Source: a virus
Lineage: Duplodnaviria; Heunggongvirae; Uroviricota; Caudoviricetes
Direction: 5' to 3' (one strand)
IMG/VR virus record: IMGVR_UViG_2617270960_000007
Length of the DNA stretch: 38,248 nucleotides
The number at the start of each line of letters is the position of its first letter. Position 1 is the first letter of the stretch. The translations under genes were made by a program, and so were the position numbers. Below the pieces are notes generated by a model. That model was not told where the DNA came from, made no database searches, and saw only the letters and a list, made by a program, of their open reading frames with translations. Below, in pieces: positions 3,331 through 36,944 of the stretch.

Positions 3331-3340
3331 CAGGTGCTTT

Positions 3341-3619: not shown

Positions 3620-3630
3620 AGGGCGTTGCG

Positions 3631-3983: not shown

Positions 3984-4075
3984 CAGCTTAAACAAAACAC
4001 CAGATTAAACCCGAAAACCTGAAAACTATCCGCATTCGCGGAGGTATTCGCACACGTAAATAACGAAGATATAAA

Positions 4076-4492: not shown

Positions 4493-4515
4493 GGTTACTG
4501 GACAAAGGGGGCGCA

Positions 4516-4719: not shown

Positions 4720-4982
4720 CCATTCTGGACTACATCGCTACTCATCCGGGGTGTAGCGGCGGAGAGATCGCCGCAGCACTGAATACCCCAACCACAGCCA
4801 TTAATGCTGAGTTACGCCGACTTTGGCGCGGCGGCTTAGTCATCAGAACAAACCGCAGCACAGGTGGTCGCGCTCGCAAAACAGGAGGCCAGGCTTCTTA
4901 CCACGTAAACCCGATGCCGTTCGGGTGTAGCAATCCACTTACCAACATGTTTAACCAGCTACTGAAGGAAGCCAGAGCATGA
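4716..4982 (+). CDS. Putative winged-helix DNA-binding protein
   Basis: 88 aa; ATGA overlap with upstream gene; segment GGEIAAALNTPTTAINAELRRLWRGGLVIR resembles a wHTH recognition helix. Confidence 0.5.
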   Translation: MTILDYIATHPGCSGGEIAAALNTPTTAINAELRRLWRGGLVIRTNRSTGGRARKTGGQASYHVNPMPFGCSNPLTNMFNQLLKEARA

Positions 4983-5278
4983 GCACCATCAACCACCAGA
5001 AGCTACGCGAACTGGCATTTGCCCTGCAACGAATGGCAACGCCTCAAAAATTACTGGCATTTCGCGCAATGCTCTCGCCGTCTGCTGTGCTGGCACTGCT
5101 GGATCAGCTGGAGCACGCCAGAACCACGGCTCCTGCCATTCGCCTCACGCTCCATCATGAAATCGCTGATTTCTGCGCAACGCTGGGGGCACCTGGCGAA
5201 CCGGAAACGCCGGAAGCAATGCAGCAAGAGCTGCTGCAACGCATCGATAACGTTTTTGATTTTTTTCTGAACCAGTAA
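4979..5278 (+). CDS. Hypothetical early-region protein
   Basis: 99-aa ORF overlapping upstream stop (ATGA). Confidence 0.5.
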   Translation: MSTINHQKLRELAFALQRMATPQKLLAFRAMLSPSAVLALLDQLEHARTTAPAIRLTLHHEIADFCATLGAPGEPETPEAMQQELLQRIDNVFDFFLNQ

Positions 5279-9253: not shown

Positions 9254-10375
9254 ATGGGCGACTTAGGTGGTATTCAGTCAGATTTAGCCCAACTAGTTAG
9301 ACTGGTAATAACTGAACAGTATGATGACGTTCGGTTATATGTCGCTCGCTTGGTGCGTAAATATCGGGAAACTATGCCTGCTCTATCCGAGCAGCTTGAT
9401 CTTTATCTACGAAATAAACCGCAAAAGCCTGCACAAAGCCTGCGTAAGGTTACCGCACCAAAACAAGCGCTGCCTCAAACCATGCCTGTGGACGAGGAGT
9501 CAAGGCTTACCTTGCTTAAAGCACCAAATGAAAAGATTGTGAGCAAACCTCTACTGTCCAGTCAGATAGAAGACTCACTGGATCAAATTATTCTTGAGCG
9601 GAAGCACATCGATCGCCTCAAGACTCTCGGCTTACAACCAACACGCTCTGCCATTTTTGTTGGCCCTCCGGGTGTAGGTAAAACACTTACGGCAAGCTGG
9701 TTAGCTCAGAAATTAGGGGTTCCTTTTTACGTTCTTGATTTAACGGCAGTAATGAGCAGCTATCTGGGCAAAAGCGGAAATAACCTTCGGGCAGCTCTAG
9801 ATTTTGCGAAGAAAGGGCCGTGCGTTCTTCTGTTAGATGAAATTGATTCAATCGCCAAAAAGAGAAGTGATGATTCTGATGTTGGAGAATTAAAAAGACT
9901 TGTTACCGTAATACTCCAGGAGGTTGACGAATGGCCGTCTTCTAGTTTGTTACTTGCTGCAACTAACTTCGCTGAGTTGATTGATCCAGCACTATGGAGA
10001 CGTTTTGATTTAGTGCTCAATTTTGAGAAGCCAGATAGCGAAAGTATTAAAGAAGCAATTAAACGCTTTTCAGGTCCCGACTACGCGATTTTTGCACGTT
10101 GGATAGATCTACTGGCTATTATGTTCAAAAATGAATCTTTTAGTAATATTGAGCGTTCTATCAACAAATTCCGACGTTCGGTCGCTTTAGGTATTTCCTC
10201 AGATGAAGAGTTGATTGGGTCGTTCATTAAAGATGGTTTATCAGAATTAGACAGGAATGAACGTAAAGAAATTGCAGTTACTCTAAAAAGAAATTCTAAA
10301 TTATCCCAGCATGCCATATCAGACTTAACCGGAGTCAGTAGGGATACAATTAGAAAATACAGTCAAAAAATGTAA
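9254..10375 (+). CDS. AAA+ ATPase (classic clade) with C-terminal HTH; candidate defense-system ATPase
   Basis: Walker A GPPGVGKT (aa 137-144), Walker B VLLLDEID (aa 191-198), sensor ATN (aa 236-238), second-region-of-homology ALWRRFD; C-terminal LSQHAISDLTGVSRDTIRKY HTH-like; own AT-rich promoter region and SD AAGAGG; AT-rich. Confidence 0.85.
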   Translation: MGDLGGIQSDLAQLVRLVITEQYDDVRLYVARLVRKYRETMPALSEQLDLYLRNKPQKPAQSLRKVTAPKQALPQTMPVDEESRLTLLKAPNEKIVSKPLLSSQIEDSLDQIILERKHIDRLKTLGLQPTRSAIFVGPPGVGKTLTASWLAQKLGVPFYVLDLTAVMSSYLGKSGNNLRAALDFAKKGPCVLLLDEIDSIAKKRSDDSDVGELKRLVTVILQEVDEWPSSSLLLAATNFAELIDPALWRRFDLVLNFEKPDSESIKEAIKRFSGPDYAIFARWIDLLAIMFKNESFSNIERSINKFRRSVALGISSDEELIGSFIKDGLSELDRNERKEIAVTLKRNSKLSQHAISDLTGVSRDTIRKYSQKM

Positions 10376-10398: not shown

Positions 10399-12624
10399 AT
10401 GGCGAAAACTAATTTTCTGATTGGACGCGGCGAATTATTAACCAGCGATATTCCTGGTCCTAAAAGAGTGCCCGGAAAAGCTGAGGTTTATTCTCTTTAC
10501 GAATCGAAACAACGGTTATTGCCGCAAATTGCATCTACTATAGAAAATTTTGATGATTTACCCAGTCAGGCATGTCCTTATGATTATGCTGTGGCTAAGT
10601 TGACGTTGAATCCGAGCTATATTGCACGCTCTTTTTTTCCTGCAAAAATGCTTAAGTCTACCGGGTTAACGTCTATTGGCAGCAGGACGGTAAAAATTAC
10701 GCCTCAAAGCTGGAAGCGAAAAGTTACTGTGTCAGAAGTAACTACGACACAAATGTTTGTTGCTGGTAAAAGAGAATCCTTCAAAGAGTTACCTCATTGG
10801 GTGTCAGGACTCAAAGAGTTTTCTGACGAAGCGATTGATTTTGCACGCATAGAACGGTTCGATGCCTATTTACCCGAAGAGCGTATTATTACCATTGGTG
10901 AGCAGGATTCTTCGTATTTTGAGGTTGGTGTTCATTTACTGCCAGATAATGAACAAGACTTGGTTCAGCAACAATTTGTTCAGTTTGCATCAAATTTGAA
11001 CATCAAAGTACATACTTCATTAGCTTTTACCGCTGGTACATTATGGTTCGTGCCAATCCAGGCCGATAGAATTACTATTAGTAAGCTTGCGAAATTTACA
11101 TTTGTACGAGTAATAAGACCGGTTCCAAGATTGCGTGGGATTAGACCAATACAAAGGAACTACGGTCCTTTAGCTCAGTGTAAATTGCCTGCTGAGGGCC
11201 CCGTATCTTCAGAAATAAAAGTTGCGATTCTTGATGGTGGTTTACCATCAGAGCACGCTATATCGCCATGGTTAAAATCCTATAGAGTTTTGGACGATCA
11301 TGCAGAGGATGATCCAGACGGTTTAGAGCATGGTTTAGCTGTGTCTTCAGCCTTTTTATTTGGACCAATAAGTAATAAATCGGAAGCGAAAAGACCATAC
11401 TCTTATATTGATAACTTAAGAGTTTTGGACAACAAGACCTGCCAAGAAGATCCGCTGGAACTATATCGAACTTTGGGCTTTATTGAAGAGGTATTGTTGT
11501 CTCGCCAGTATCAGTTTATCAATCTAAGTTTAGGTCCAGACCTACCAATTGAAGATACGGAAGTTCATGCATGGACTTCCGTTATTGATGATTTGTTAAG
11601 TGATGGTGAAACATTAATGACTGTTGCTGTTGGCAACAATGGAGAAATGGATCGCAAGTCTGGTAATGCAAGAATTCAAGTACCAGCCGATTGCGTTAAT
11701 GCTCTTGCTGTTGGTGCTTGTGATACAGTTAATGATACGGAATGGAAACGAGCACCATATAGCGCCATTGGGCCAGGCAGAAGTCCTGGCGTGATGAAAC
11801 CGGATTTAGTTGCGTTTGGTGGTGACACAGACGAGTACTTTCATGTTTTAGGTAAAGGTAAGAAGCCTGTAATCATACCCCAGCTAGGAACAAGCTTTGC
11901 CTCTCCTTACGCCTTACGAGCAGCTGTTGGTGTTCGGGCAATTTTAGGGAACGATTTGAGCCTACTAGCAATCAAAGCTTTGTTAATTCATGCGTCAAAA
12001 CAGCTTGATCATCCTTGTACAGAAGTTGGCTGGGGAAAACTTCCTGAAGACTTGAACGACATTATAGTCAGCCCTGATGGTGTTGCCCGTATCGTCTACC
12101 AAGGTGAATTGAAACCAGGAAAATACTTACGCGCTCCTCTTCCAATACCTGAAGGTGGCTTGAAAGGTAGAATAAACTTAGCGGCAACTTTCTGTTATGC
12201 AACAACCACTGATCCACAAGACCCAGCTTCCTATACAAAAGCTGGTTTGGAAGTGACATTCCGGCCAAATGATTCAAAAATCAAAGACGGAAAACAAAAT
12301 GCTGAAACCAAGGGATTCTTTGAACTGGCCAAATATTCAACTGAAAGTGAGCGACGTTCTGACATGGGCAAATGGGAGACCGTCTTACATAATTCGAAGA
12401 ACATGCTAGGTTCAACTCTAAAAAATCCTGTATTTGACATTCATTATAACGCTCGTGAGGCCGGTGCAAGCATAGCCAGCCATAAGGCAGAAAAAATCAA
12501 GTATGCTCTTATAATTACCATTAAGGCATCAAAGCACCAAGACCTGTATAACGAAATTTTACGTACTTATAATCAGGTGCTCGTGCCAATTCAACCGCAA
12601 ACATCAATTCCTATTCGTTCGTAA
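10399..12624 (+). CDS. Subtilisin-like serine protease (peptidase S8) with about 270-aa unknown N-terminal domain
   Basis: Catalytic triad motifs in S8 order: VAILDGG (Asp about aa 279), HGLAVSS (His about aa 311), GTSFASPYA (Ser about aa 499), oxyanion VGNNGE (Asn about aa 413); 24 nt after the ATPase gene, same strand; AT-rich. Confidence 0.85.
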   Translation: MAKTNFLIGRGELLTSDIPGPKRVPGKAEVYSLYESKQRLLPQIASTIENFDDLPSQACPYDYAVAKLTLNPSYIARSFFPAKMLKSTGLTSIGSRTVKITPQSWKRKVTVSEVTTTQMFVAGKRESFKELPHWVSGLKEFSDEAIDFARIERFDAYLPEERIITIGEQDSSYFEVGVHLLPDNEQDLVQQQFVQFASNLNIKVHTSLAFTAGTLWFVPIQADRITISKLAKFTFVRVIRPVPRLRGIRPIQRNYGPLAQCKLPAEGPVSSEIKVAILDGGLPSEHAISPWLKSYRVLDDHAEDDPDGLEHGLAVSSAFLFGPISNKSEAKRPYSYIDNLRVLDNKTCQEDPLELYRTLGFIEEVLLSRQYQFINLSLGPDLPIEDTEVHAWTSVIDDLLSDGETLMTVAVGNNGEMDRKSGNARIQVPADCVNALAVGACDTVNDTEWKRAPYSAIGPGRSPGVMKPDLVAFGGDTDEYFHVLGKGKKPVIIPQLGTSFASPYALRAAVGVRAILGNDLSLLAIKALLIHASKQLDHPCTEVGWGKLPEDLNDIIVSPDGVARIVYQGELKPGKYLRAPLPIPEGGLKGRINLAATFCYATTTDPQDPASYTKAGLEVTFRPNDSKIKDGKQNAETKGFFELAKYSTESERRSDMGKWETVLHNSKNMLGSTLKNPVFDIHYNAREAGASIASHKAEKIKYALIITIKASKHQDLYNEILRTYNQVLVPIQPQTSIPIRS

Positions 12625-14164: not shown

Positions 14165-15915
14165 CAGAACTCCATAACCGTGAAACGCTCGTTTTCTCCT
14201 TCGCCGCCAATCGGTTCGTTAATGACAGCAAGCATGGTTGCCCACGCAAGGTCGCCGTGGCTGATCCCCCTCGCGCGGTCCGTTTCGTAAGTGATAAAGC
14301 CGCCCGGTGTTTTCACCTTACGCACGGCGTTAAAGGCCGCGACCAGCTCGCGTTCGGCGCGATCGTATTCCCACCGCCCGGCACGCATTATTTGCAGCAT
14401 TTTCAGTACCAGCGACCGTTTTGATGACAGCGTGAAGGTGTACGGAATAGCAGCAGGGAAAAAACGTTTCACTATCTGATAAACAGCCTCCCCGTTCCCG
14501 CCCGTCACATCAATGCCGATGTGTTCCACGTTGTAGCGATACGTGAACTCTTCAATGACTCTGGCCTGTTCTTCAAACTCCAGCCCCTGAACGCGTCGCG
14601 TCTCCACCGTTCGAAAACGGCCACCAGGAACAGCCGGAGGAACCACCACGGACACAGCGCCGCTGTCGCCGTTGCCACTGCTGCCGTTTGCGTCATACCC
14701 AATCCATACCGGACGATTCCCCATCGGGCGGGGAGCAAAAGGTTTCCAGTCTTTCCAGTCGTCGTATCCGTCAACACCGCAGCCAATCAGGATATTCAGG
14801 TTAAATGCCGATTCCCCTTCGCGAACAAACTCACACATATAGAGATTGCGGAACTCGTCTTCGGTGTTTTCATCACGAATTTCATCAATATCGGTGTGTT
14901 TCCAGCCGTGATTAACCACATCTTCCAGCGTGACAATTTGCCGCCACGTCCGGTCGGGGCAGATAAGCCCGTTATGCAGCGTTTTCCAGTCCACAGAAAA
15001 ATGCTGGCGTTTATGCGCGGCCTTTTTCTCGTTCCAGCGGTCGCCGTTCCAGTAGACGTATGCCTCGTGCGTTTCGGTTGATGGCGTGGAGAAGTAGGTG
15101 CGTCGCAGCCCGCTGAGGGTTGCCATAGCGCCAGCCACCTTGCGCAGTTCAGCAAAGCGACTGACCCAGAAAAATTCATCAAAATAAAAATTGCCTGTGT
15201 AGGACTGTGCCGTCGCAGCAGAAGTACCGAGAAAATGCAGCTCTGCGCCGTTGGAGAGGATGATTTTATCGCCCCCTTTCAGCTCCACATCAACTTCAGC
15301 CGCGGCCTTCTGAATAATGCTTTTAAACTGGAACGCCTGACGACGCGACGCAGACAAAAAAATCTGGTTACGCTGGTAAGGTTGCGCCACATCGTCACGC
15401 AGCGCCATCAGCAGTGCTTCCTGTGCAAAATACCAGGTTGCACCAATCTGTCGGGATTTCAGGATCATCCTGTTACGTATCCCGGCTTCCCTGCAAAGGG
15501 TCAGGGAGTCAAACCAGCCCCGCTGATGCCACTCCAGCCTGCTGATGATTTTTTCCCGCAGTGCGGCAATCTGTTCCGGCGTGAAATGATTTTTGAGTTT
15601 TTTCGCCCGGCCTTTCTTTCCTGCGGCCGTCGCATCCGGCTGGCCATCATGCAGCTTTTTAAGCTGCCGGGTCAGCAGGTCTATTTCCTTAAAGTCACCG
15701 CCTGTTTTATTCTGTTTTTCAGTAAGCTGGATGAGGCGCGCATCGATGGACTGCGTGACACGCTGCACGGGTGGCGTTTCATCCCACTGGTCGCGTTTTT
15801 TCCACGCATAAATCGTGTTCGGGTTTATTCCCATCAGACGTGATATTTCTGCGGGCGGATAACCCTGCCAGTAAAGTTGCCGCGCACGCTGGCGCACAAA
15901 AGCGTCCTGAATCAT
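14164..15915 (-). CDS. P: Terminase large subunit / ATPase (P2 gpP family)
   Basis: 583 aa; N-terminal HTH-like region and ATPase/nuclease-sized body; Q-P minus-strand pair divergent from O-N-M-L. Confidence 0.85.
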   Translation of the reverse strand: MIQDAFVRQRARQLYWQGYPPAEISRLMGINPNTIYAWKKRDQWDETPPVQRVTQSIDARLIQLTEKQNKTGGDFKEIDLLTRQLKKLHDGQPDATAAGKKGRAKKLKNHFTPEQIAALREKIISRLEWHQRGWFDSLTLCREAGIRNRMILKSRQIGATWYFAQEALLMALRDDVAQPYQRNQIFLSASRRQAFQFKSIIQKAAAEVDVELKGGDKIILSNGAELHFLGTSAATAQSYTGNFYFDEFFWVSRFAELRKVAGAMATLSGLRRTYFSTPSTETHEAYVYWNGDRWNEKKAAHKRQHFSVDWKTLHNGLICPDRTWRQIVTLEDVVNHGWKHTDIDEIRDENTEDEFRNLYMCEFVREGESAFNLNILIGCGVDGYDDWKDWKPFAPRPMGNRPVWIGYDANGSSGNGDSGAVSVVVPPAVPGGRFRTVETRRVQGLEFEEQARVIEEFTYRYNVEHIGIDVTGGNGEAVYQIVKRFFPAAIPYTFTLSSKRSLVLKMLQIMRAGRWEYDRAERELVAAFNAVRKVKTPGGFITYETDRARGISHGDLAWATMLAVINEPIGGEGENERFTVMEF

Positions 15916-26974: not shown

Positions 26975-26980
26975 CGTTAA

Positions 26981-27475
26981 TCAGAACAGCCCTTTAACTG
27001 AACTGGCCGCGCTGTTAAGAGATGATGTCACCTTATCTTTGAAGCCGGACAGCATATCGCTGAACGATGAGGATTGCAGGCGTTCCCGCAAATCCTCATC
27101 ACAGCGTTCAAGGGTTAGTGAAAATTCTATCTTTTTCGCCTTACCGTAGCGATCAAACTCGGAACGGGTCGTATTCGTTCCGGTCAGGACATACATGCCG
27201 TAAATCTGCCCGACGCCATCAATCAAAGGCCAGGGTCGTCCTGTATACGCCTGCGTGGTCAGCAGCGACAGCGACACTTCGCCACCTGTAATTTCAGGAT
27301 AAAGCACACCAGAAAGAACGATGCGATCATCACCTGCACCGATATACTGCCAGCTTGCTGAACGGTTAACGCGTTCATTTTTCACATGCCGCCAGCTTTT
27401 GTGTTGCTGTAACTGCTGATGCGGCAGCGTGCGCAGCTCAAAAACAAACATGCCGTAGATCATCATCATGGCCAT
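26981..27475 (-). CDS. U: Tail protein U (P2 gpU family)
   Basis: 164 aa; immediately downstream (minus strand) of tape measure. Confidence 0.8.
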   Translation of the reverse strand: MAMMMIYGMFVFELRTLPHQQLQQHKSWRHVKNERVNRSASWQYIGAGDDRIVLSGVLYPEITGGEVSLSLLTTQAYTGRPWPLIDGVGQIYGMYVLTGTNTTRSEFDRYGKAKKIEFSLTLERCDEDLRERLQSSSFSDMLSGFKDKVTSSLNSAASSVKGLF

Positions 27476-27481
27476 GACTCC

Positions 27482-30298
27482 TCAATCTTTATCGTAAAAA
27501 CTGCCACGCCCGGCACGGGCGCGCCGTTCCATTTCTGCCCTGACCATTTCACCGACCAGTTTCGCCAGTTCGCGGGGATTCTGCGTAACAACGTTATGCA
27601 GATGAACATGAATTTCACCGCCAAATCCTGAGGCAACAGGTTCCCGGTTACGCGAAGGTGTTGGGGCTGATGCCACTGGCGATCGTATGGCCTCCGCCAC
27701 CGGGCGGGAGCTGGCCGCAACAACAGGGACCAGCGCCGGAGGCAGCGGGGCCGGAACCACAGGCGTGATATTAATTGCGGGGGCAGGCTTACTGACCTGC
27801 GCAATCTTCCGCTCCTGCCACTCCCCACGAACGGCAAGTGCGCGGGGCAGGTTCTTAAAGACAATATCGCCGGGGCCAATGCGTTTTTTCGTCTCATCAA
27901 CCAGCTTACCTGTGTTATCAGCAATTTTGCTGAGCCTGCGTAGCGTACCGGTATTGCTGTCTGTGAGCGGTTTATTATCTTTGGGTTTATCACCTCCGGT
28001 GCCATTGCCATTTTCTACAGGCTTCGGCGGATTGATTTTCGCCAGGTCCCCCTGAAGCAAGGCAACCTTGTCCTGGAGAATAGCCGCACGCTGTGCGTCT
28101 TCGATTTTCTTTCTCGCCCTTTCCGCTTCATCCGGAAGCACACCGAGTTTTTCAAGTATCCACGCCAGCGTATCCAGCAACATTTTTGCAGGCGTCAGAA
28201 CAAGCTGTAACGCGCCACCAAGAACGTTACCGAATATCTCGCCAGCACTGGTACATTTATCCAGCGTTTCCTTGCTGGACTCCATCGGTGACAACAGCGA
28301 TTTAAACCAGTTAAACACCTGGCTGATCCCGCTTCCGATTGCGTCAAAAACAGGACCAAACCGTTCAAAGGTTTCGCGCAACGGGGTCAGCCTTTCCATA
28401 ATCCCGCTGAACACCCCGGCAAAAAATGCCCTGATGGGATCCCAGTATTTCCAGATGAGAACGGCAGCTCCGGCAAGCGCAGCCACGATAAGACCGACCG
28501 GACTGAACAACGCCCCGATAGCGCCCCCCAGTAACGAAACGGAACCCGTCACCATTCCCCATAGTGCTGGCAGGAGTCTGACAGCATTCATTGAACCAGT
28601 CAGGAGGGAAAAACCAAGACGCAGTTTTGCCAGTGGGCCAGCAAGCACACCAAGAGCAAGCGACAACGAGCCTACGGTTGCAGTCACTGCCAGCAGCGCA
28701 CCGCCTGCAATCAGTAGCTGGCGCGTCAGTACAGGATGGGCCTGCGCCAGTGCCGTCACCTTTGAGACCACCCGCGTTAGCCACTGCGTGACAGAACGCA
28801 GCGGACCGTCAACCAGATCACTGATGCGAATACGAAGACCTTCCCATGCGCTGTCGAGATTTTTCAGGTCGCCATCAAGGTTGTCGGCCATAACCTTTGC
28901 CGTGCGTTCAGCCTCACCGCGTGCGCCCTCAAGTTCTTTTCTCAGTTTGGGTAAGGAACCGTCCCCCGCCGCATCAACGAGTGCCATAAACGATGTGAAA
29001 GCCTCTTCCCCGGCGATGTCCTTAAAGAAGGATACCCGGTCAACTTCCCCGTATTTGCGGGTAGCTTTATAAAGGTCAGCCAGCAGATCTTCCATCGGGC
29101 GCATTTTGCCCCCGGCATCCGAGACGGACACGCCCAGCTCTTTCAGAGCTTCTGCCGCCGCCTTTGGCGGTGATGCCAGACGAGCCAGGCTGGCACGCAT
29201 TGCCGTCCCGGCATCACTCCCTCTGATGCCCATATTCGCCAGCACGCCCGCCATCGCTGCGGCCTGCTCCAGCGATATTCCCAGCTTACCCGCCACCGGA
29301 CCTGCATATTTCATGGTTTCGCCCAGTGCGCGAAGGTCAGTGTTGGTACGGGTAAACGCTGCGGTGAGTGTGTCACCGACCCGGTCCATCTGGTCAGCAG
29401 AAAGGCCGAACTGCGTCAGGATATTTGAGCCAATATCTGCCGTTTCGCCGAGATCCATACCGCCAGCCGTTGCCATGCTCAGTACGCCGGGAAGCGCAGC
29501 CTGAATGGCCTGCGGAGTGAAGCCAGCCATTGCAAGAAATGCCTGCCCACTGGCGGCATCGCCTGCAGTGAACTGCGTTTCAGAGCCAAGTTTTAACGCC
29601 TGCTCACGCAGCGCCTTAAACTGCGGGCTGTTTTTGTCGATTCGCGTCAGAGCCTGAACGCGGGACATCTCTTTCCCGAACCCAATCGCGGGCTGCAAAA
29701 AACGCCCGGCAGCATAGCCGCCCGCCGCTGCCGCACCTATAGCCAGTGCACCACCTGTTTTCAGTTTTCCCGCGGTTTCCTGCGCACGCGAATACCGCTC
29801 ACGCGCCCGCGTTACACGCGCAAGCGCCTGCCGTTCGTGTTCAAGCTGGTTGTTGTACTGTTCGGTGCGTCTGATGGCCTGCTGGATGGTGTTATCGCTG
29901 CCTGTCAGGGAAATGCCGTGGCGTTTCAGCTCTCCGCCAAGCTCCCGCATTTTCTGAATTTCCCGTGTGCGCGATTCATTCAGGCGTTCAAGCCGGGTGC
30001 TTAACTGCTGCATCAGCTTTTGTTGTTTTTCGCTGAGCACTGTACCCGTACGTTGTAACTGATTAAGGGCGTTAAGCTGGCGTCGTGCTTTCACGATACC
30101 CGTATCCGCTTTACTGACAGCGTCGCGGGCGCGCTCAAATGATCGCGCCTGACGCTCGAGATTTTTGATCGCCCCCTGCGTTCGCTGGATGGAGTCACCA
30201 AACTGCCCCATCAGGCGGCGGGCGTTTTCGGCAGGCCGGGTCAGCCTGTCAACGGCGCTGAAAGCGACCCGGATATCAAGAGTCTTCATTATCTGCAT
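27482..30298 (-). CDS. T: Tail tape measure protein (P2 gpT family)
   Basis: 938 aa; long coiled-coil N-terminus, multiple hydrophobic/Gly-Ala-rich central segments; follows E/E-prime. Confidence 0.9.
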   Translation of the reverse strand: MQIMKTLDIRVAFSAVDRLTRPAENARRLMGQFGDSIQRTQGAIKNLERQARSFERARDAVSKADTGIVKARRQLNALNQLQRTGTVLSEKQQKLMQQLSTRLERLNESRTREIQKMRELGGELKRHGISLTGSDNTIQQAIRRTEQYNNQLEHERQALARVTRARERYSRAQETAGKLKTGGALAIGAAAAGGYAAGRFLQPAIGFGKEMSRVQALTRIDKNSPQFKALREQALKLGSETQFTAGDAASGQAFLAMAGFTPQAIQAALPGVLSMATAGGMDLGETADIGSNILTQFGLSADQMDRVGDTLTAAFTRTNTDLRALGETMKYAGPVAGKLGISLEQAAAMAGVLANMGIRGSDAGTAMRASLARLASPPKAAAEALKELGVSVSDAGGKMRPMEDLLADLYKATRKYGEVDRVSFFKDIAGEEAFTSFMALVDAAGDGSLPKLRKELEGARGEAERTAKVMADNLDGDLKNLDSAWEGLRIRISDLVDGPLRSVTQWLTRVVSKVTALAQAHPVLTRQLLIAGGALLAVTATVGSLSLALGVLAGPLAKLRLGFSLLTGSMNAVRLLPALWGMVTGSVSLLGGAIGALFSPVGLIVAALAGAAVLIWKYWDPIRAFFAGVFSGIMERLTPLRETFERFGPVFDAIGSGISQVFNWFKSLLSPMESSKETLDKCTSAGEIFGNVLGGALQLVLTPAKMLLDTLAWILEKLGVLPDEAERARKKIEDAQRAAILQDKVALLQGDLAKINPPKPVENGNGTGGDKPKDNKPLTDSNTGTLRRLSKIADNTGKLVDETKKRIGPGDIVFKNLPRALAVRGEWQERKIAQVSKPAPAINITPVVPAPLPPALVPVVAASSRPVAEAIRSPVASAPTPSRNREPVASGFGGEIHVHLHNVVTQNPRELAKLVGEMVRAEMERRARAGRGSFYDKD

Positions 30299-30799
30299 TC
30301 CCGCTGCGAAGTGCCGCCCGCTCGCGCCAGCTAACCACTTCGCCGGGCGTCATCATGAAGATTTCGGCGGGCGACCAGTTAAAAATGGCGGCAATATCCG
30401 CCACAAAGTCTTCTATGTGCTCAAAGCACACAACCGTGATCAGGCTTCCGTCGCCTGTTCGTTCTTCCCGCCAGAGTCCGCACCGCTCAAAAAATTTACG
30501 GCAACCACACATAACTGAATAAAGTCACGGGATGCCATTTTTTTGATCGTCACTTCATCCAGTCGCGGTGATGTCACGCGTGACAGCAGCGTAAACATGG
30601 ATTCCGCTTTCAGATTCAGCACATCAGACAGCGACAAATCTCGCAGAGATCCAGCCTGCTCAATAGCCCCGGTGATCTCCACATACGTGATTTTTTCGCC
30701 GCCTCGCTCAATTGGTTGGGTAAGTTTTACGCCACGCTCACTGGTTTCTTTCACAGTGTCAGTAACTACCGTGTTATCGATGTTTTTCGTCTCTTTCAT
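30276..30799 (-). CDS. E: Tail assembly chaperones E and E+E-prime (programmed -1 frameshift)
   Basis: E frame 30440-30799; overlapping -1 frame ORF 30276-30512; slippery heptamer TTTTTTG on minus strand at 30488-30494 where the two frames overlap, as at the P2 E/E-prime site. Confidence 0.65.
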
Positions 30800-30853
30800 C
30801 AGGAAACTCCTTTCAGTCAGAGGCGACGCACTGCGCCGCCTGCATATTACTTA

Positions 30854-31366
30854 TCAGCCAAGCCCAAGCGCGGAACGGATGCGATCGGGCACAATGTCCT
30901 TGCCGTCCTTCCGGTAAATGAAGTTCAGTAGGTCAATCTCCCACAACGGGCGATCGTTAACACTCAGCTTGTAGTAGGTGTTTTTAATGGCGTAAGTGTG
31001 TGATGTGGCTTCGCCCTGTTTGGCTTCCCCCATATCAATTTCCGTCACACGTCCGCGCATTTCGACTTCATACAGGTCGCTTTCTGCATCGGTGTAGTAT
31101 TCACCCGCAAAACGCAGCAGCGTGCCGTCAATCGTGCCGCCATACTTAAGGAACAGCTCACGAACTGCGCCCCCCATGACAAAGCTCGCATCAAGCGCGG
31201 AGTCGTCCAGGCCGAGATCAATACTTACCGCCCCCATCATGCCACCACCCCGGTAGCTGTCGGTTTTGCGCGTCAGCTTAGGCAAAGTGACGGACGTCAC
31301 CTTACCCACTTCGTTTTCACCATCCACAAACAGCGTAAAAAAGCGAAGATGTTTTGGCACAGCCAT
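30854..31366 (-). CDS. FII: Tail tube protein (P2 gpFII family)
   Basis: 170 aa; adjacent to sheath gene. Confidence 0.85.
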   Translation of the reverse strand: MAVPKHLRFFTLFVDGENEVGKVTSVTLPKLTRKTDSYRGGGMMGAVSIDLGLDDSALDASFVMGGAVRELFLKYGGTIDGTLLRFAGEYYTDAESDLYEVEMRGRVTEIDMGEAKQGEATSHTYAIKNTYYKLSVNDRPLWEIDLLNFIYRKDGKDIVPDRIRSALGLG

Positions 31367-32550
31367 CAGGCACCTCCCAGCACCGCAAATGCGGGTTCAA
31401 AGTATTCATCAGTAAACGTCTGGTAAAGCTCCATGTCTTCCAGTGGCGGAACGGGCGTATATTTGTAGCGAATACGCACACGCCCCTGACGTAAATCCGT
31501 GGTGCTGTTATCCACCACGTCATACCAGCACTCCGCGCCAATCAGTTTCCCGGCAGTCACCAGTGAATCCAGTTTTGCCCTGATGGCACTGATAACATCC
31601 TTCACGTTCGCAGGCGTCAGTGGACTGTCGATGGTTTCAAACTGCGCTTCCGCAATTGAATCAGCCAGCACCTGTGCGGTTCGGGTATACACCTCAAAGA
31701 TGTAGGCGTTCGTTTCCGGTGTGCGGTTGCCCCAGAAGCGGAACCCGTTGCGACGAATAATGGTCGTGATTTCTTTGTTGTTGAGGCTGTTGGCATCGCT
31801 GTCTTCGGCCTGCAACGACCAGAACACATGCCTCGACATCCCCAGCACATTTTTAACCGGAACGTTGGACAATGATTTGTGCCAGCCCTGCTCATGGTCA
31901 ATGTACGCACGAAGGCCGCACGCATAGGCAGGCGCGGGGAACGTTTCGTTTTTGCCACTTTTCGGGTTGTAGGCGATGAAGTCCGGCCATAAGAGCATCA
32001 CCTCACGTTCGTTGAATTTCTGGCGGTAGGTAATCGCCTCAGCCATCGTGTTACAGCCGTGACATGAGGCATACACAAACGCGCGCAGTTTACCTGCAAT
32101 CACGCACAGGGATTTTGTTACAGCCTCCGTGTCCAGCTCCGGCGCGGCCAGAATACGCGGACGGTATCCGATGCTTTCATCCTGCTCTGCAACAAGCAGC
32201 GCATACATCCCCGTATAGCTGCCGTCATCCTCAGAACCACCGATAACCAGTTGATCCTGCGTCTTTCCGTCTTCTTCTTTGTGTTCAGCCACGCGAACGA
32301 CGACCACCTTTGTGCTCACCTGGTCTGCGATGGCCTTAAGCGCACGATAAAGCGTCCCCGTTGTCCCGCATTTTCCCAGCACATCATTGACGCGGGTCAG
32401 CAGTGTGGGCTTGTTCAGCGGGAACAGCTCCGCGTCCGCATCATCCGCCGTTGCCACGATACCGATAACGCTGGAATCAACATCGTTAATCGCTGTTACC
32501 AGGTCGGTATTTTCCGTAACACGGGCACCATGAAAACGAGTTTCACTCAT
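31366..32550 (-). CDS. FI: Contractile tail sheath protein (P2 gpFI family)
   Basis: 394 aa, matching P2 FI size; FI-FII-E-T-U order. Confidence 0.9.
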   Translation of the reverse strand: MSETRFHGARVTENTDLVTAINDVDSSVIGIVATADDADAELFPLNKPTLLTRVNDVLGKCGTTGTLYRALKAIADQVSTKVVVVRVAEHKEEDGKTQDQLVIGGSEDDGSYTGMYALLVAEQDESIGYRPRILAAPELDTEAVTKSLCVIAGKLRAFVYASCHGCNTMAEAITYRQKFNEREVMLLWPDFIAYNPKSGKNETFPAPAYACGLRAYIDHEQGWHKSLSNVPVKNVLGMSRHVFWSLQAEDSDANSLNNKEITTIIRRNGFRFWGNRTPETNAYIFEVYTRTAQVLADSIAEAQFETIDSPLTPANVKDVISAIRAKLDSLVTAGKLIGAECWYDVVDNSTTDLRQGRVRIRYKYTPVPPLEDMELYQTFTDEYFEPAFAVLGGA

Positions 32551-32707
32551 AGCTTCAGCCCCTTGTATCCGTTAAATGATTCGGCAACAATCATCACCCA
32601 CCACGCGCGTAATCTCACCCCTGCGCCGTTCTCCCGACCCGGCGACAACAAAAAGCAGTAACCCCCTCTGCACGCACATGCGACCATGCCGCACAGGGAG
32701 GGAACAG

Positions 32708-33817
32708 ATGACCGACACCACCATGCAATTGCTCAGTCAGGGCACAGACCCCGTGAAAATGCCAGATTTTGATATTCTCGCGGAGGGTAAAACGCTGTCA
32801 GGCGTGGCAGAGCGCCTGATGAGCCTGTCACTGACCGACAACCGGGGATTTGAGGCGGACCAGCTCACCATCACGCTGGATGATGCGGATGGTCAGTTGC
32901 AGCTACCGCCACGGGGCGCGCGCCTGACGGTTCTCATTGGCTGGAAAGGAGAACCGCTGACAGAAAAAGGCACTTACATTGTTGATGAAATCGCTCACGA
33001 AGGACCGCCGGACAGGCTGACTGTTTCAGCCAGAAGCGCAGATTTTCGGGATGAATTTAACGTTAAACGTGAAGTGTCCTGGCATGATGTGACCGTTGAG
33101 CGCGTGGTATCCGCCATCGCTCATCGGTACGGCCTGAAACCGCAAATCAGCGAAATGCTGATGGATATCGAAATCGACCACGCCGACCAGACCGAAGAAA
33201 GCGACATGTCCTTCCTCACGCGCATGGCGGAAATGCTGGGCGCAATCACCACGGTAAAAAGCGGTAACCTGTTATTCATCATGCCCGGCGGTGGCGTGAA
33301 CGCACAGGGCCAGCCGTTGCCCTCGTTCGCCATCACACGCAGCAGCGGCGATCGCCATCAGTTCCGCATTGCTGACCGCGAAGCGTATACGGGGGTACGC
33401 GCTTACTGGCTTGATCTTAATTACGGGAAAAAGAAAAAAGTCAGCGTGAAACGCCGCAAACCGCCAAAACCCAAAAAGGAGAAAAGCAGCAGCCGTGAAG
33501 GTGATTATATGGAAGGCGCAGAAGGCAATGTGTTTGTGTTACGCAAGACTTATCAGAACGAGCAGGCAGCAAGACGCGCAGCGGCGGCAAAGTGGCAGCA
33601 GCTACAACGCGGAGCCGCATCATTTTCCATCACGCTGGCGCGTGGACGTGCAGAACTCTACCCCGAAATGCATGGCACGGTAACAGGATTTAAAAGCGAG
33701 ATTGATAATCAGGACTGGATTATTGCAAAAGCCGAGCACACTATTGATGACAGTGGCTTTACCACACAGCTTGAGCTTGAAGCAAAAATCCCGGAATGGA
33801 TAGCGGAAACAGAATGA
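32708..33817 (+). CDS. D: Tail protein D / late control gene D family
   Basis: ATG at 32708 with GGGAGGG SD; about 369 aa; lysine-rich low-complexity insert KKKKVSVKRRKPPKPKKEKSS; precedes ogr region. Confidence 0.85.
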   Translation: MTDTTMQLLSQGTDPVKMPDFDILAEGKTLSGVAERLMSLSLTDNRGFEADQLTITLDDADGQLQLPPRGARLTVLIGWKGEPLTEKGTYIVDEIAHEGPPDRLTVSARSADFRDEFNVKREVSWHDVTVERVVSAIAHRYGLKPQISEMLMDIEIDHADQTEESDMSFLTRMAEMLGAITTVKSGNLLFIMPGGGVNAQGQPLPSFAITRSSGDRHQFRIADREAYTGVRAYWLDLNYGKKKKVSVKRRKPPKPKKEKSSSREGDYMEGAEGNVFVLRKTYQNEQAARRAAAAKWQQLQRGAASFSITLARGRAELYPEMHGTVTGFKSEIDNQDWIIAKAEHTIDDSGFTTQLELEAKIPEWIAETE

Positions 33818-34216
33818 GCAAATTAGATGTATTGACTCAAACCAGAACTGACACACTCACAGCACAGTGCCAGACCCAATCTGGCAGCCCGCTTTGTGCC
33901 TAGAGCAGGTGTTGCTTATGTAACAGTTAATCCACGGATAGTGGTCATGAATGCTGGTTGAAGTTGTATTGCCATGAGTGGTCAATTAGGGACTCACTTA
34001 TTATCGCGTGCTCACCATTGATGGGTAAGATCATGCATTTCGGCTACTGTACTTCGCGAATCCTCCACACACAGGCAACACCTGATTTAAGAACAGAGGG
34101 AGATGATGACGCAAGGAAGATTTATTATCGTGCATGTGGCAGATGATCTTTTAGCTGCCGGAGTGATAAATTACACCTATTTTCGATAAGTGTTTTTGTT
34201 ATAGAACATTAATTTC

Positions 34217-35356
34217 GTGGGAAACAATAAAGTGAAATTAGGAAGAAATGATAAGTGCTGGTGTAATTCAGGACTTAAGTATAAAAAGTGCCATCTTGGT
34301 CGAGACCGTGAAACTCCGGTATCCAAAGCCGAGGCACTGAAATTTTCAAAGTCTCTCTCGCAGAGAAAGGCATGTTATGCGCCAGCATCCATGCACGAAG
34401 ATTGTGATAAACGCATCGTTCAGGCGCATACGATATCTAAGAGCAGTAGCCTTAAGGCGATCGCCGACTCCAGCAATCACGTCATGGGGGTGATAATGAA
34501 CTTAGCAAGCCTGATGAGAAACAACGGAAAATGGCTTCCCGAGAAGATCGGTATCAATCAGGCATCCACTTTTACAGGATTTTGTGCAGTTCATGACAGA
34601 ATCTTGTTTTCATGCCTAGAGAACGAAAAATTTACAGGCACGGACGAGCAGTGCTTTGCCTTAATGTTTCGTTCATTGTCTAAAGAAATTTACGCCAAAG
34701 AAGGGGGAGTGCTATCTTCCGATTTTGCTAAAAATGCCGATAAAGGAAAGCTACAAGTTGAACAGTATTATATTCAGAAATTAATCGACCAGCACCAAAG
34801 TGGCTTAAATGCAGCAATAATTGAATTAAATAATCTTAAAACTAGCCTCGACCGCATCCTACTTAGCAGGCAATTTTCAGAAATTGAAAGTGTTATCTTC
34901 ACTTTTGCAGAGCCTTTACCAATTGTAGTTTCGTCAATTCTTTCACCGGAGAGGGATTTCGATGGGACCAAAATTCAGGATTTGAGCGATCTTACAGTGT
35001 CGGCGGAACAAGTATGTTTCAATGCTTTTTCCTGCGGAGGTAAGGGATATGTAGTGTTCAGTTGGCTGAGAACTTCAACAATTATCAGACGTTTTATACG
35101 GACACTAATTAAGATCCCGGCTAACAGGATGTTCAATACCCTTCTGTATTTTTTCTTCACAAAGGCCGAAAATATATATTCATCCCCTGAGTGGTGGGAC
35201 AGGCTCAGTGATAAACAGCGAGAGAATATCGGCAACATGATTATGTCAGGGGTTGAATTTTTTGGCAGACCTACATCACAGGTTGATCATTCCGTTGATT
35301 ATAACGCCGCTGCACTTGAAGAGATAACATGCAGCAACAACGAAATTTGCAGTTGA
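34217..35356 (+). CDS. SEC-C motif (zinc-binding) domain protein of unknown function, prophage cargo
   Basis: N-terminal GRNDKCWCNSGLKYKKCH matches the SecA C-terminal metal-binding (SEC-C) motif; about 350 further residues with no recognised motif; GTG start (alternative GTG at 34232); AT-rich. Confidence 0.6.
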   Translation: MGNNKVKLGRNDKCWCNSGLKYKKCHLGRDRETPVSKAEALKFSKSLSQRKACYAPASMHEDCDKRIVQAHTISKSSSLKAIADSSNHVMGVIMNLASLMRNNGKWLPEKIGINQASTFTGFCAVHDRILFSCLENEKFTGTDEQCFALMFRSLSKEIYAKEGGVLSSDFAKNADKGKLQVEQYYIQKLIDQHQSGLNAAIIELNNLKTSLDRILLSRQFSEIESVIFTFAEPLPIVVSSILSPERDFDGTKIQDLSDLTVSAEQVCFNAFSCGGKGYVVFSWLRTSTIIRRFIRTLIKIPANRMFNTLLYFFFTKAENIYSSPEWWDRLSDKQRENIGNMIMSGVEFFGRPTSQVDHSVDYNAAALEEITCSNNEICS

Positions 35357-35645
35357 ATGTTTACATGCTGTTAGAAAAAGCGGGCTGAACAATCATTTCG
35401 GGATTGTAACAGATAAGATGGCACTGCCCGCTTGCTTCCCGATATGTACCTCAGCCAATAAACTTATGTAAGCAACCGATTTCCATTTATGCGGAGGTTA
35501 TCAAAGTTGTTGGAGTTGCGAACTTCCGCTCTTCGCACAAAGCGTACCGCTAGGTTTGATTGTATTCTGGCTGCGCAAACTGTCAGTTGGAGTCTGAGCT
35601 ATTACAACTTAGAATAGCGGCAGCACCACGTTAAGGGAGGTCGCT

Positions 35646-35906
35646 ATGTTCCGTTGTCCGCTTTGTGGCGCATCTGCCCGAATCCGCACCAGTCGTCCGG
35701 AAAACGATTCAAACACTGTGCGGCAAAAGTATTACCAGTGTAACAACCTGGAATGCGGCGTATGCTTCTCAACACTGGAAGCTTTCCATAAATTCACATC
35801 AAAACACGCCTCCGGCGTTCACTCTTCGGAAGGTATCCCGTGGCATGAGCTGCCAGCTTCACACAGGGGAAACAATCAGATGAGTTTGCCTTTACCTCAG
35901 AATTAA
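35646..35906 (+). CDS. ogr: Late gene transcriptional activator, Ogr/Delta zinc-finger family
   Basis: MFRCPLCGASARIRTSR...YYQCNNLECGVCFSTLEAF carries the Cys-X2-Cys...Cys-X4-Cys pattern and resembles P2 Ogr as recalled; SD AAGGGAGG upstream. Confidence 0.85.
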   Translation: MFRCPLCGASARIRTSRPENDSNTVRQKYYQCNNLECGVCFSTLEAFHKFTSKHASGVHSSEGIPWHELPASHRGNNQMSLPLPQN

Positions 35907-36097
35907 CAGGCAGAATTGCCGGAGTAACAAAAAAACGATAGATTACCCGCGGGTGCCTTTCGGCTGATGGTCGGAGGGAATACCCGAAGGCCGGATGTGG
36001 AAAGGCCCCGGAAAACATTTCTGTTTAACCGAGGCCCTAACATATCTACCTTAAGCAAGTGATAGGTTAGCGCCTCTCCAACAAAGGAGCAAGCGCT

Positions 36098-36238
36098 ATG
36101 TCGCAAAAATCGCTTACGGCCATCACGTTCTGCGTGACGGTAATCCTCATCATCTGGATGCTACACGGTTCGCTGTGTGAAATACGGATGAGCTTCTGGG
36201 GAGCGGAGTTTGCGGCGTTCTTACAGTGTAAGCAGTAA
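36098..36238 (+). CDS. Hok/Gef-family type I toxin (small membrane peptide)
   Basis: 46 aa MSQKSLTAITFCVTVILIIWMLHGSLCEIRMSFWGAEFAAFLQCKQ: one TM helix followed by the SLCEIR...(E)xAAF signature of Hok/Gef; terminator hairpin follows. Confidence 0.6.
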   Translation: MSQKSLTAITFCVTVILIIWMLHGSLCEIRMSFWGAEFAAFLQCKQ

Positions 36239-36426: not shown

Positions 36427-36708
36427 TTACTCAGCATTCTCCTGCTTCCATTGCCGGATCATTTCATCGGTAACATCACCCTCATAACATACCACGTCAT
36501 ACCCTCCATTACGGCTATATGCACTGCGTCCACCACATCTACTACCATTCCTTGCATGATTATAAGGACACGCACAATTGCCTGGATAAGATTCAATGGA
36601 TTCTTTAATTATTTCTTTTTTGATCTGAGCATCAGACTTTCCTGTTGCTGCATATCCACTAAAAGATACTAAACAAAGGCAGATTGCCATTAATAAACCA
36701 CATCGCAT
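36427..36708 (-). CDS. Small cysteine-rich secreted protein, unknown function
   Basis: Likely start MRCGLLMAICLCLVSFSGYAATG (signal peptide); mature part has 4 Cys in GNCACPYNHARNGSRCGG...VVCYEG; the track ORF extends to 36822 but its upstream part lacks a signal sequence. Confidence 0.4.
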   Translation of the reverse strand: MRCGLLMAICLCLVSFSGYAATGKSDAQIKKEIIKESIESYPGNCACPYNHARNGSRCGGRSAYSRNGGYDVVCYEGDVTDEMIRQWKQENAE

Positions 36709-36944
36709 ACCGATACACTCTATTACTAACCAATCATAGCCCACATCATAAAATCGAGATGAGGAGCACAATACCTTTAACAAGAAGGTGTCATAACGAT
36801 AATATGTCGTGCAATTCATCAAAAAAAAGATCTATATCAAAGAGATAGAACTCTTATCAGTGCTTCAGACATCGGCATTCGAGGCAGCAGAAAAACAGTA
36901 AATCTGACGAATTTGCCTTTTCCCAAGATGTTGTCAGATTAAAA

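Follow-up and report, generated by a model that had tools for sequence, protein, structure and literature searches.

A putative Rugutis-family defence gene in an IS481-type cassette between D and ogr of a P2-like prophage

The vehicle considered here has its closest described counterparts in mobile insertion cassettes (MICs), of which MIC231 in the Bacillus cereus group is an example, and in MITE-like elements derived from insertion sequences. For its passenger, the closest counterpart is Rugutis (pUCCL633_059), a single-gene antiphage system of 359 aa on the Lactococcus plasmid pUCCL633A, which confers phage resistance with an Abi-like phenotype in Lactococcus and whose relatives outside that genus include proteins of a Clostridia bacterium and of Pontibacillus litoralis (Grafakou et al. 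2024, PMC11381338). Rugutis has a confident AF2 model that matches no fold in the PDB, and of three lactococcal hosts, two did not accept its constructs or did not keep them stably (PMC11381338). Escape mutants of phage c2 carry changes in the large terminase's ATPase domain, and co-expression of the terminase is toxic to Rugutis-carrying cells (Mosterd et al. 2025, PMC12184496). Rugutis was assayed on a high-copy vector, and the terminase is not fully established as the trigger, because the terminase of an escape mutant is still toxic (PMC12184496). According to a 2026 paper, PADLOC and DefenseFinder do not include Rugutis (PMC13335696).

The known accessory loci of P2, old/tin at the A-Q hotspot and Z/fun (Rousset et al. 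2022, PMC9122126), place variable cargo of one or a few genes in an otherwise conserved P2-like genome, and this cargo typically excludes other phages. A 'third hotspot' has been described in P2-like phages, between a tail gene and CI (bioRxiv 10.1101/2024.10.15.618418), and the word 'ogr' does not occur in the text of Rousset et al. (PMC9122126). The locus described here, in a stretch of 38,248 nucleotides from a tailed phage (IMG/VR record IMGVR_UViG_2617270960_000007; hereafter the window), resembles these loci in holding variable cargo but lies between D and ogr and is delimited by IS-type repeats and a target duplication (Table 1).

Table 1. Features of the D-ogr region, in window coordinates
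Feature	Position	Strand	Basis or remark
Gene D of P2 (tail/baseplate hub), flanking the insert on the left	32576..33817	+	Pfam Phage_GPD, E 7e-17; stop codon 33815-33817
Left copy of the 7-bp target-site duplication, AATTAGA	33821..33827	.	comparison with empty junction L007
Left terminal inverted repeat, TGTATTGACTCAAACCAGAACTGACA	33828..33853	+	20/26 positions match the IS481-family consensus end
Conserved non-coding leader, beginning with a small CCGCT...AGCGG-type hairpin block and ending at the start codon	33878..34216	+	alignments
Gene of the Rugutis family (379 aa, starting at GTG), sole passenger of the cassette	34217..35356	+	ORF list; BLASTP; hhalign; dN/dS; AF2 model
SEC-C metal-binding motif, aa 10-27, ligands C14, C16, C25, H26	34244..34297	+	Pfam PF02810, E 2e-8, 34.4 bits
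Imperfect hairpin just past the stop codon	35378..35433	+	inverted repeat I4
Right terminal inverted repeat, reverse complement TGTAATAGCTCAGACTCCAACTGACA	35581..35606	-	22/26 positions agree with the IS481-family consensus end
7-bp target-site duplication, right-hand copy, ACTTAGA	35607..35613	.	comparison with the empty junction
ogr late-gene activator, right flank of the insert	35646..35906	+	Pfam Ogr_Delta, E 5e-14

The insert and its IS481-type ends

A preliminary description of this DNA had noticed about 1.8 kb of AT-rich sequence with one 379-aa ORF between D and ogr, and had taken it for inserted cargo. The ORF and the low GC content (0.37-0.47 over ~33900-35550, vs 0.53-0.57 in the adjoining phage genes) are confirmed, and the SEC-C gene is the only long ORF within the insert. 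In most related E. coli prophages, the stop codon of D and the ATG of ogr are only 42 bp apart; thus, the DNA between them in the window is inserted cargo. Comparison with the empty site sets the exact bounds of the insert at 33828-35606 (1779 bp): the empty junction contains a single ACTTAGA 7-mer; at the occupied site, AATTAGA stands to the left of the insert and ACTTAGA to its right. The survey of D-ogr occupancy that the preliminary description had called for found the junction empty in most related E. coli prophages, with alternative cargo in others. At least five cargoes sit at the identical 7-bp site (the Rugutis-like gene and genes for a PIN_12, a ParA-like, a weak-HEPN and an unknown protein), and the ends of the alternative cargoes are progressively decayed.

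The left terminal repeat pairs with 35581-35609 as an inverted repeat (I3). When the whole window was searched with the IS481-family consensus end at up to eight mismatches, exactly two matches were found, which are the two ends of the cassette; about 0.003 matches with six or fewer mismatches would be expected by chance. The same repeats bound an autonomous IS481-family element of 1201 bp, which is flanked by perfect 7-bp target duplications and whose transposase matches NF033577 with 288.8 bits (cut-off 224). Full-length copies of this IS occur in 77 E. coli genomes, so a source of transposase is available, for instance in E. coli CP55_Sichuan; a tblastn search with the IS transposase found nothing inside the cassette. 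Sister cassettes that likewise have no transposase measure 0.5-4.6 kb, are flanked by perfect 7-bp duplications and carry TIR-domain, HNH, PIN and other genes. Moreover, the same gene lies in such cassettes at two other, unrelated insertion sites, with ends of the same type and short duplications of their own; no repeats were detectable around the homologs in Salmonella, Pantoea and Citrobacter.

Because it combines IS481-type inverted repeats with a 7-bp duplication and an empty site in relatives, the insert is, as read from its sequence, a transposase-less mobile insertion cassette with IS481-type ends. It resembles MICs in having terminal inverted repeats of the type of a known IS, a target duplication as long as that of the parent IS, no transposase, a passenger gene, and sister elements that bear other cargo. 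It differs from them in its parent, an IS481-family element of Enterobacterales with which it is homologous at the ends only (~27-35 nt), in the defence-like nature of much of the cargo, and in its target, a prophage hotspot. The cassette may no longer be able to transpose, as its repeats are degenerate (six mismatches on the left and four on the right in 26 positions) and the two copies of its target duplication agree at six of seven positions. On the + strand, the right terminal repeat also supplies TTGGAG-17 nt-TAGAAT upstream of ogr, as can be read directly from the sequence.

The passenger protein and its relation to Rugutis

The preliminary description had proposed a GTG start, an N-terminal SEC-C motif and no other recognisable motif, all of which stand. 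After an in-frame TAG, the first codon that could serve as a start is the GTG at 34217; at the aligned position, the four relatives that were read as DNA also have GTG, and Klebsiella variicola has ATG. The motif scores well above the PF02810 gathering score of 20.4 bits, it matches the SEC-C peptides of SecA and YchJ in a profile search against PDB sequences, and its ligand positions are either invariant or Cys/His-substituted across the family. For the remaining ~350 residues, Pfam, NCBIfam, PHROGs and PADLOC gave zero matches, the PDB profile search returned nothing beyond the SecA and YchJ motif peptides, and a Pfam scan of all 39 family members matched the SEC-C motif alone. In PADLOC-DB v2 (2023), matches were confined to the length of the SEC-C motif and came from the E1-E2/E2 and PDC-S12 models. 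Structure prediction, also suggested earlier, was successful in part: it yielded a confident AF2 model (pLDDT 88.7), but no match in the PDB or BFVD that would name the core. The core is a Cys/His-rich region of ~340 residues with a predicted fold for which the PDB has no representative, and in a homolog on Klebsiella pKPN5 it occurs without the SEC-C motif.

The link to Rugutis came from matches to Lactococcus dairy plasmids in a tblastn search, pUCCL633A among them. This plasmid encodes only one SEC-C protein; it has 359 aa, the stated length of Rugutis, and its best relatives outside Lactococcus are from a Clostridia bacterium and Pontibacillus litoralis, in agreement with the published account (PMC11381338). 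From strain, plasmid, length and reported homologs, we infer that this protein is Rugutis. BLASTP aligns the window protein with it at 26% identity over 358 columns (E 9e-38), and hhalign pairs window residues 1-366 with Rugutis residues 1-355 at a probability of 100% (E 6.5e-40). By these alignments, the window protein is a full-length, though distant, homolog of Rugutis. Both proteins have an N-terminal SEC-C motif and ~360-380 aa, both are encoded by partnerless single genes on mobile DNA, both have confident AF2 models without a PDB relative, and both contain the core motifs C..C..AH(T/S)I, TFTGFCxxHDxxxFxxxE, YR and EN. Apart from the low identity, they differ in the fourth SEC-C ligand, which is His in the window protein (CxC...CH) and Cys in Rugutis (CxC...CC), and in their setting, a P2-like prophage cassette in a proteobacterial host vs a dairy plasmid; the conserved leader of ~330 nt is specific to the enterobacterial clade. 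Judging from conservation, the invariant residues C53, C63, C123 and H126 could make up a second metal site, and the likewise invariant H71, D127, E135, R152, K161 and E318/N319 could make up a site for catalysis or ligand binding. A suspected connection with DUF4238 (Rst_DUF4238), drawn from a superficial AH[TS]I..xxL resemblance, was dropped as unsupported, since no Pfam or PADLOC match at E <= 10 was found in any of the 39 members. Another candidate, an apparent fusion of Rugutis with a deaminase (P0384), most likely derives from a chimeric metagenomic contig.

Conservation, expression signals and genomic contexts

The family comprises 1491 clusters (50% identity) at E <= 1e-30, and a dN/dS of 0.12-0.15 indicates that the gene is under purifying selection. 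In E. coli, where prophages of O157:H7 and O111 strains are among the carriers, its clade is well conserved; the family extends further to Salmonella, Klebsiella, Citrobacter and Pantoea. As to disruption in relatives and a conserved housekeeping position outside prophages, which would speak against an accessory function, the locus is intact at >=99% identity in 80 of the 5426 complete E. coli genomes, and in these the gene is always on mobile DNA. The horizontal acquisition assumed in the preliminary description finds support in the occurrence of the same gene in unrelated mobile elements, namely a RepL/H-NS island, a P4-like satellite where it adjoins PARIS, a Citrobacter defence island that also holds HEPN/RES and DUF4238 genes, and plasmids; the family is also seen in Listeria phage records. 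The neighbours differ in every context examined, and neither a conserved partner gene nor an antitoxin-like one was found across these contexts. The window prophage itself also carries ietAS, at the A-Q hotspot.

The leader and the 3' hairpin travel together with the gene, and alignments show that the leader has been kept across six genomic contexts and across species. The earlier picture of a gene between an AT-rich leader and an imperfect hairpin is accurate as to the conserved leader, the low GC content and the presence of a hairpin-like repeat. The repeat is not a canonical intrinsic terminator. Its arms (35378-35399 and 35412-35433) are 22 nt long and 73% complementary, and the region 35357-35500 folds better than shuffled sequences (z -2.8); however, the hairpin has no T-run, and a terminator scan found no canonical intrinsic terminator downstream of the gene. 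A phage moron, as an autonomous transcription unit, would also have a promoter of its own; no consensus sigma-70 promoter upstream of the gene was found in a promoter scan, and an Rfam scan of the leader gave no match. Across the insert region, Rfam reported only sok, which lies beyond ogr. A possible long-range helix over the start codon is 93% paired in six sequences with one compensatory change, but it is non-significant in the shuffle control and is missing from the minimum-energy fold of the window itself. Taken alone, the right-end element shows no significant structure (z -0.07). A 'subterminal' inverted repeat (33878-33913 / 35521-35556) was considered as a pair of transposase sites and rejected, as two small palindromic hairpins fit better.

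Proposed role and alternative explanations

We suggest, with reasonable though not full confidence, that the locus is an IS481-type cassette with a Rugutis-family gene that acts as a one-protein, Abi-type antiphage defence expressed from the prophage. The preliminary description had left three roles for this single-gene cargo, defence, anti-defence or host modulation; a role of this kind is supported, and defence is favoured among the three because the protein is homologous over its full length to the experimentally validated Rugutis. By landing or by recombination, the cassette would have entered a site of P2-like prophages at which cargo recurs. By analogy with Lactococcus, the protein would be expressed from the prophage and remain inactive until a late phage product appears, possibly the large terminase, upon which it would arrest or kill the infected cell, so that lysogens as a population, and the prophage with them, would be shielded from competing phages. 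In SecA, the SEC-C motif binds SecB and ribosomes (bioRxiv 10.1101/613315), and the motif in the window protein might similarly dock it onto a cellular partner. In this account, we infer antiphage activity in E. coli, its trigger and the chemistry of the effector, as well as the ability of the cassette to move today. Function could also have diverged from that of Rugutis, given the low identity.

It seems rather unlikely that the gene instead encodes a toxin for addiction or selfish maintenance, or a factor for anti-defence or host modulation, and so serves the cassette or the prophage instead of guarding the host against other phages, for example by interfering with SecB or ribosomes through its SEC-C motif. 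This would fit the carriage of the gene on selfish elements, the partners that SEC-C domains are known to bind, the adjoining hok/sok, and the difficulty of establishing Rugutis constructs in lactococcal hosts, which hints at toxicity (PMC11381338). However, the only experimental data for the family concern phage resistance, Abi-like and with escape mutants (PMC11381338, PMC12184496); the neighbourhoods are enriched in defence, not anti-defence, genes; and no antitoxin-like partner is conserved in the contexts examined. Hardly any weight can be given to the idea that the protein is a housekeeping factor of the YecA family (UPF0149) in Sec-dependent export, as its RefSeq name, 'YecA family protein', would have it. 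The SEC-C motif is genuine, and SecA (in its C-terminal metal-binding domain), YecA and YchJ share this ~20-residue Cys/His metal-binding motif with the window protein, but here it is N-terminal, whereas it is C-terminal in YecA and SecA, and it is attached to an unrelated core without a UPF0149 or SecA domain. With the genuine YecA of E. coli, BLASTP gives an alignment of just 21 residues, which are the motif; Pfam detects no UPF0149 domain here or in the 39 family members; and a housekeeping role is at odds with the small number of E. coli genomes that have the gene and with its confinement to mobile DNA. On these comparisons, the assignment to the YecA family is already refuted.

How the cassette reached the junction is a separate matter. 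It is possible, if less than probable, that the repeats are relics and that D-ogr is a recombination hotspot at which P2-like phages swap cargo modules via homology in D and ogr, so that mobilisation by a transposase lies in the past here or never took place. The different cargoes at exactly the same 7-bp site fit such swapping as well as they fit repeated insertion, the ends of the alternative cargoes have decayed, the repeats in the window carry mismatches themselves, and the hotspot between a tail gene and CI (bioRxiv 10.1101/2024.10.15.618418) offers a precedent in P2-like phages. Transposition, on the other hand, better accounts for the same gene with same-type ends and its own short duplications at two unrelated sites, for the many sister cassettes whose perfect duplications have the length of those of the autonomous IS, and for an empty site with a single copy of the 7-mer. 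Both processes may have acted in turn. We would venture only as a speculation, and a somewhat doubtful one, that IS481-family cassettes serve in Enterobacterales as a dedicated shuttle, mobilised in trans, for immune effectors encoded by single genes (Rugutis-like, TIR-domain, HNH, PIN, HEPN and DUF4365 genes have been found as cargo), which would seed and partly explain the 'hotspots' of P2-like prophages, satellites and islands; and that in the Rugutis family, the SEC-C motif docks on ribosomes or SecB and the protein senses something that the phage makes late, for instance the large terminase, whereupon a new Zn-stabilised enzymatic fold shuts the cell down.

The window gene thus adds a member to an already described kind, that of Rugutis, and it is the vehicle that is notable. 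A gene of a defence family has been hidden under the label "YecA family protein", which rests on a 21-residue motif. Its carriage by an IS481-type element without a transposase suggests a concrete route by which single-gene defence systems may enter the hotspots of prophages and satellites. Rugutis is a validated yet mechanistically opaque defence protein, and its family now reaches a well-conserved clade in E. coli, which provides a tractable host and phage set for work on mechanism; mutagenesis can be aimed directly at the Cys/His and acidic residues that are invariant and at the SEC-C motif, which is separable.

The D-ogr junction of the prophage

The window holds a P2-like prophage. In the RefSeq locus identical to it, from E. 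coli CFIAFB20180511, the annotation runs from int, by way of A, Q, P and the genes for capsid, lysis and tail, as far as D, ogr and hok, with tRNA-Leu/Cys/Gly and pgsA adjoining. The preliminary description took the DNA between D and ogr to be inserted cargo and proposed a survey of this junction in P2-like prophages. In an evenly spaced sample drawn from the 1153 matching records, the site proved to be variable: in most related prophages the junction is empty and 42 bp separate the D stop from the ogr ATG, in a minority one other gene is found there, encoding a PIN_12 protein, a ParA-like ATPase, a weak-HEPN protein or an unknown 384-aa protein, and the remaining prophages have the cassette of the window, which bears out the claim of insertion. 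Comparison with the empty site set the limits of the insert; ACTTAGA occurs once in the empty site. In the occupied site the left flank reads AATTAGA and the right flank ACTTAGA. Recombination that swaps one cargo for another, instead of insertion on several occasions, could account for the five cargoes at one 7-bp site. Of 5426 complete E. coli genomes, 80 contain the 2-kb region at an identity of at least 99%, always in the same position; O157:H7 and O111 strains are among them. In one matching record (H12, E. coli O111:H11 88.0502, NZ_CP077567.1 4447596-4450933), the IS4-like ISVsa5 lies within the cassette region.

Features of the window and of three comparison loci
Feature	Position	Strand	Remark
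ietA	9254-10375	+	AAA ATPase, IetA, PADLOC E 1e-77
ietS	10399-12624	+	S8 protease, IetS, PADLOC E 6.7e-52
Tail genes FI, FII, E, T, U	~26980-32550	-
D/ogr	32576-35906	+
D	stop at 33817	+	Phage_GPD
Insert	33828-35606
Inverted repeats	33825-33853 / 35581-35609		imperfect
Leader	33905-34220		~330 nt, non-coding
Candidate helix	33932-33938 + 33947-33954 with about 34206-34220		bipartite, 15 bp
SEC-C gene	34217-35356	+	379 aa, GTG start; sole long ORF between D and ogr
ogr	start 35646	+	Ogr_Delta
hok/sok module	35951-36238	+	toxin-antitoxin
sok RNA	35951-36108	+	RF01794, E 3.7e-8, under gathering score
Hok/Gef ORF	36098-36238	+
131-aa ORF	36427-36822	-	AT-rich; phrog_27544, E 1.5e-57
yecA	L013 (NZ_CM143727.1) 14595-15260		UPF0149, C-terminal SEC-C
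ettA-nadR block	L015 (E. coli AH20J067) 309-5085		~4.7 kb
Core homolog, 'hypothetical protein'	L142 (pKPN5) 2992-4134		380 aa, without SEC-C

The gene described earlier as a lone GTG-started ORF in AT-rich DNA is indeed the only long one in the insert, whose GC content is 0.37-0.47 versus 0.53-0.57 in the phage genes on either side. Its GTG is the earliest possible start 3' of an in-frame TAG; the equivalent codon is GTG in four relatives compared at the DNA level and ATG in Klebsiella variicola. One close relative has GAG in place of the second in-frame GTG (34232). The reported hairpin after the gene is present as an imperfect inverted repeat 3' of the stop codon, in a region whose folding beats that of shuffled sequences (z -2.8), and it does not have the canonical terminator form. 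No promoter was identified in a scan upstream of the gene, and the right repeat places TTGGAG-17 nt-TAGAAT, as read from the sequence, upstream of ogr. The leader travels with the gene and is conserved in six contexts. Within it, RNAalifold proposes a helix over the GTG start, 93% paired across six sequences versus ~40% on a sliding partner, with one compensatory change (GTG to ATG with C to U); the shuffle control does not reach significance, the minimum-energy fold of the window does not contain this helix, and we regard it as a candidate only.

Elsewhere in the prophage, the ietAS defence pair occupies the classical P2 A-Q (old/tin) hotspot. Five tail genes lie on the strand opposite to D and ogr, in which the prophage differs from P2; this looks like a block inversion common to the whole prophage lineage. 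The identical RefSeq record marks the tail-fibre assembly gene as partial and gives D as 266 aa, yet an open frame of 413 aa runs from 32576. A hok/sok module directly follows ogr, and the AT-rich ORF between hok and the tRNA cluster is split by IS2 in the otherwise identical CFIAFB20180511 locus.

An IS481-type passenger cassette

Imperfect inverted repeats end the insert. Its ~110-bp right end has matches of 75-82% elsewhere in 396 E. coli genomes, 3' of other accessory genes, and the cassette in full, from left end through leader and gene to right end, is found again in a RepL island, where the repeats are better paired (22/27) and have a short flanking repeat of their own. When scanned in one genome per species, the repeat consensus, TGTATTAGCTCAGAC[CT]TGATCTGACAGTT, was found to form the end of a ~1201-bp insertion sequence, often assembled as a separate contig, whose 361-aa product is an IS481-family transposase (NF033577, 288.8 bits versus a cut-off of 224). 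Perfect 7-bp target duplications flank the autonomous copies and likewise flank transposase-less elements of 0.5-4.6 kb with the same repeats. Sister cassettes with IS481-type ends, seen in comparison loci L026, L054, L075, L100, L108 and L132 and in other loci, carry TIR-domain proteins, an HNH nuclease, a GHKL ATPase and several unknown proteins, as well as non-defence cargo (a glycosyltransferase and a RibD_C protein). The two ends of the window insert match the 26-nt consensus at 20/26 and 22/26 positions and are the sole matches with at most eight mismatches in all 38 kb, the chance expectation being about 0.003 matches at six mismatches or fewer. At a third site, on a metagenomic contig, a 65%-identical homolog lies inside such a cassette with the duplication CCTCAAG/CCTAAAG. 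Several homologs have no detectable repeats, and tblastn found no transposase inside the window insert. We conclude that the insert is an IS481-family mobile insertion cassette whose passenger is a Rugutis-like gene. The window repeats are degenerate, and mobility of this cassette at the present day would be presumptive.

Full-length copies of the insertion sequence are found in 77 of the 5426 complete E. coli genomes; partial matches (80-90% identity) occur in 5357 of them, at a median of two places per genome. In E. coli AH20J067, a block between ettA and nadR, running from a left-end-like repeat to a right-end-like element and containing genes for a LysR regulator, an aldo/keto reductase, an SDR, an SRPBCC protein and a GNAT protein, may belong to this cassette family as a large member.

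A proteobacterial member of the Rugutis family

Residues 10-27 form a genuine SEC-C motif (PF02810, 34.4 bits; cut-off 20.4), as had been recognized by eye, and the ~350 residues said to be without a familiar motif gave no match in Pfam, NCBIfam, PHROGs or PADLOC; 39 family members scanned singly again gave the SEC-C motif and no further match. A word-indexed search returned 296 relatives of ~372 aa with the same N-terminal motif, from Enterobacterales, Psychrobacter, Aeromonas, Pseudoalteromonas, Pseudomonas and others, and an exhaustive profile search returned 1491 clusters (50% identity) at E <= 1e-30. AlphaFold models the protein with confidence (pLDDT 88.7, pTM 0.87), and Foldseek found no match to the model at E <= 0.001 in PDB and BFVD. 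Purifying selection acts on the gene (dN/dS 0.12-0.15 versus two 86-87%-identical copies). RefSeq's label 'YecA family protein' reflects the motif and is a misnomer, only 21 residues being common to the protein and real YecA; real yecA lies just outside the left end of the window, directly adjoining the integrase end of the prophage.

The link to a known system came from plasmids. A tblastn search with the window protein led to Lactococcus dairy plasmids, among them pUCCL633A, the source of the one-protein antiphage system Rugutis. This plasmid encodes only one SEC-C protein, of exactly 359 aa, whose best relatives outside Lactococcus come from Pontibacillus litoralis and from a Clostridia bacterium, both of them organisms named in the Rugutis paper (PMC11381338). 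The two proteins align end to end (BLASTP E 9e-38, 26% identity; hhalign probability 100%, E 6.5e-40). In a joint proteobacterial and Firmicutes alignment, the SEC-C ligands C14, C16 and C25 are invariant and position 26 is His or Cys; C53, C63, H71, A116, F119, G121, F122, C123, H126, D127, F131, E135, R152, K161 and N319 are also invariant. The core is an independent domain, because it stands without a SEC-C motif in a homolog on plasmid pKPN5 of Klebsiella pneumoniae MGH 78578 (hhalign probability 99.9%). A P-loop NTPase gene lies near that homolog.

Rugutis makes cells resistant to phage, and the phenotype resembles abortive infection (PMC11381338). Phage c2 mutants that escape it are altered in the ATPase domain of their large terminase (PMC12184496). 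Co-expression of phage c2's large terminase is toxic only with Rugutis in the cell, and mutant terminase retains its toxicity despite the escape mutation (PMC12184496); the effector mechanism is still undescribed (PMC13064643). For the window protein, the trigger and the chemistry of the core are inferred. The SEC-C motif of SecA binds SecB and ribosomes (bioRxiv 10.1101/613315), and a role for the motif in the window protein is likewise presumptive. According to a 2026 paper, Rugutis is missing from PADLOC and DefenseFinder (PMC13335696), which agrees, as regards PADLOC, with our own scan.

In all contexts the SEC-C gene is solitary, and the DNA around it is mobile or defence-rich: a RepL/H-NS-type island in E. 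coli, a P4-like satellite region in Salmonella where PARIS (AAA + DUF4435) is also present, an island with HEPN/RES, HEPN_Swt1 and DUF4238 genes in Citrobacter, a phage-like region in Klebsiella variicola, a variable region with a zeta toxin and an integrase in Pseudomonas, plasmids of several phyla and phage records of Listeria.

In summary, the Rugutis family, a known kind of defence protein, gains in this gene a new member that is proteobacterial and carried by a prophage, and an IS481-type passenger cassette delivered it. The horizontally acquired, single-gene accessory function first suggested for it is thereby supported and sharpened, and in E. coli this function would presumably be defence.
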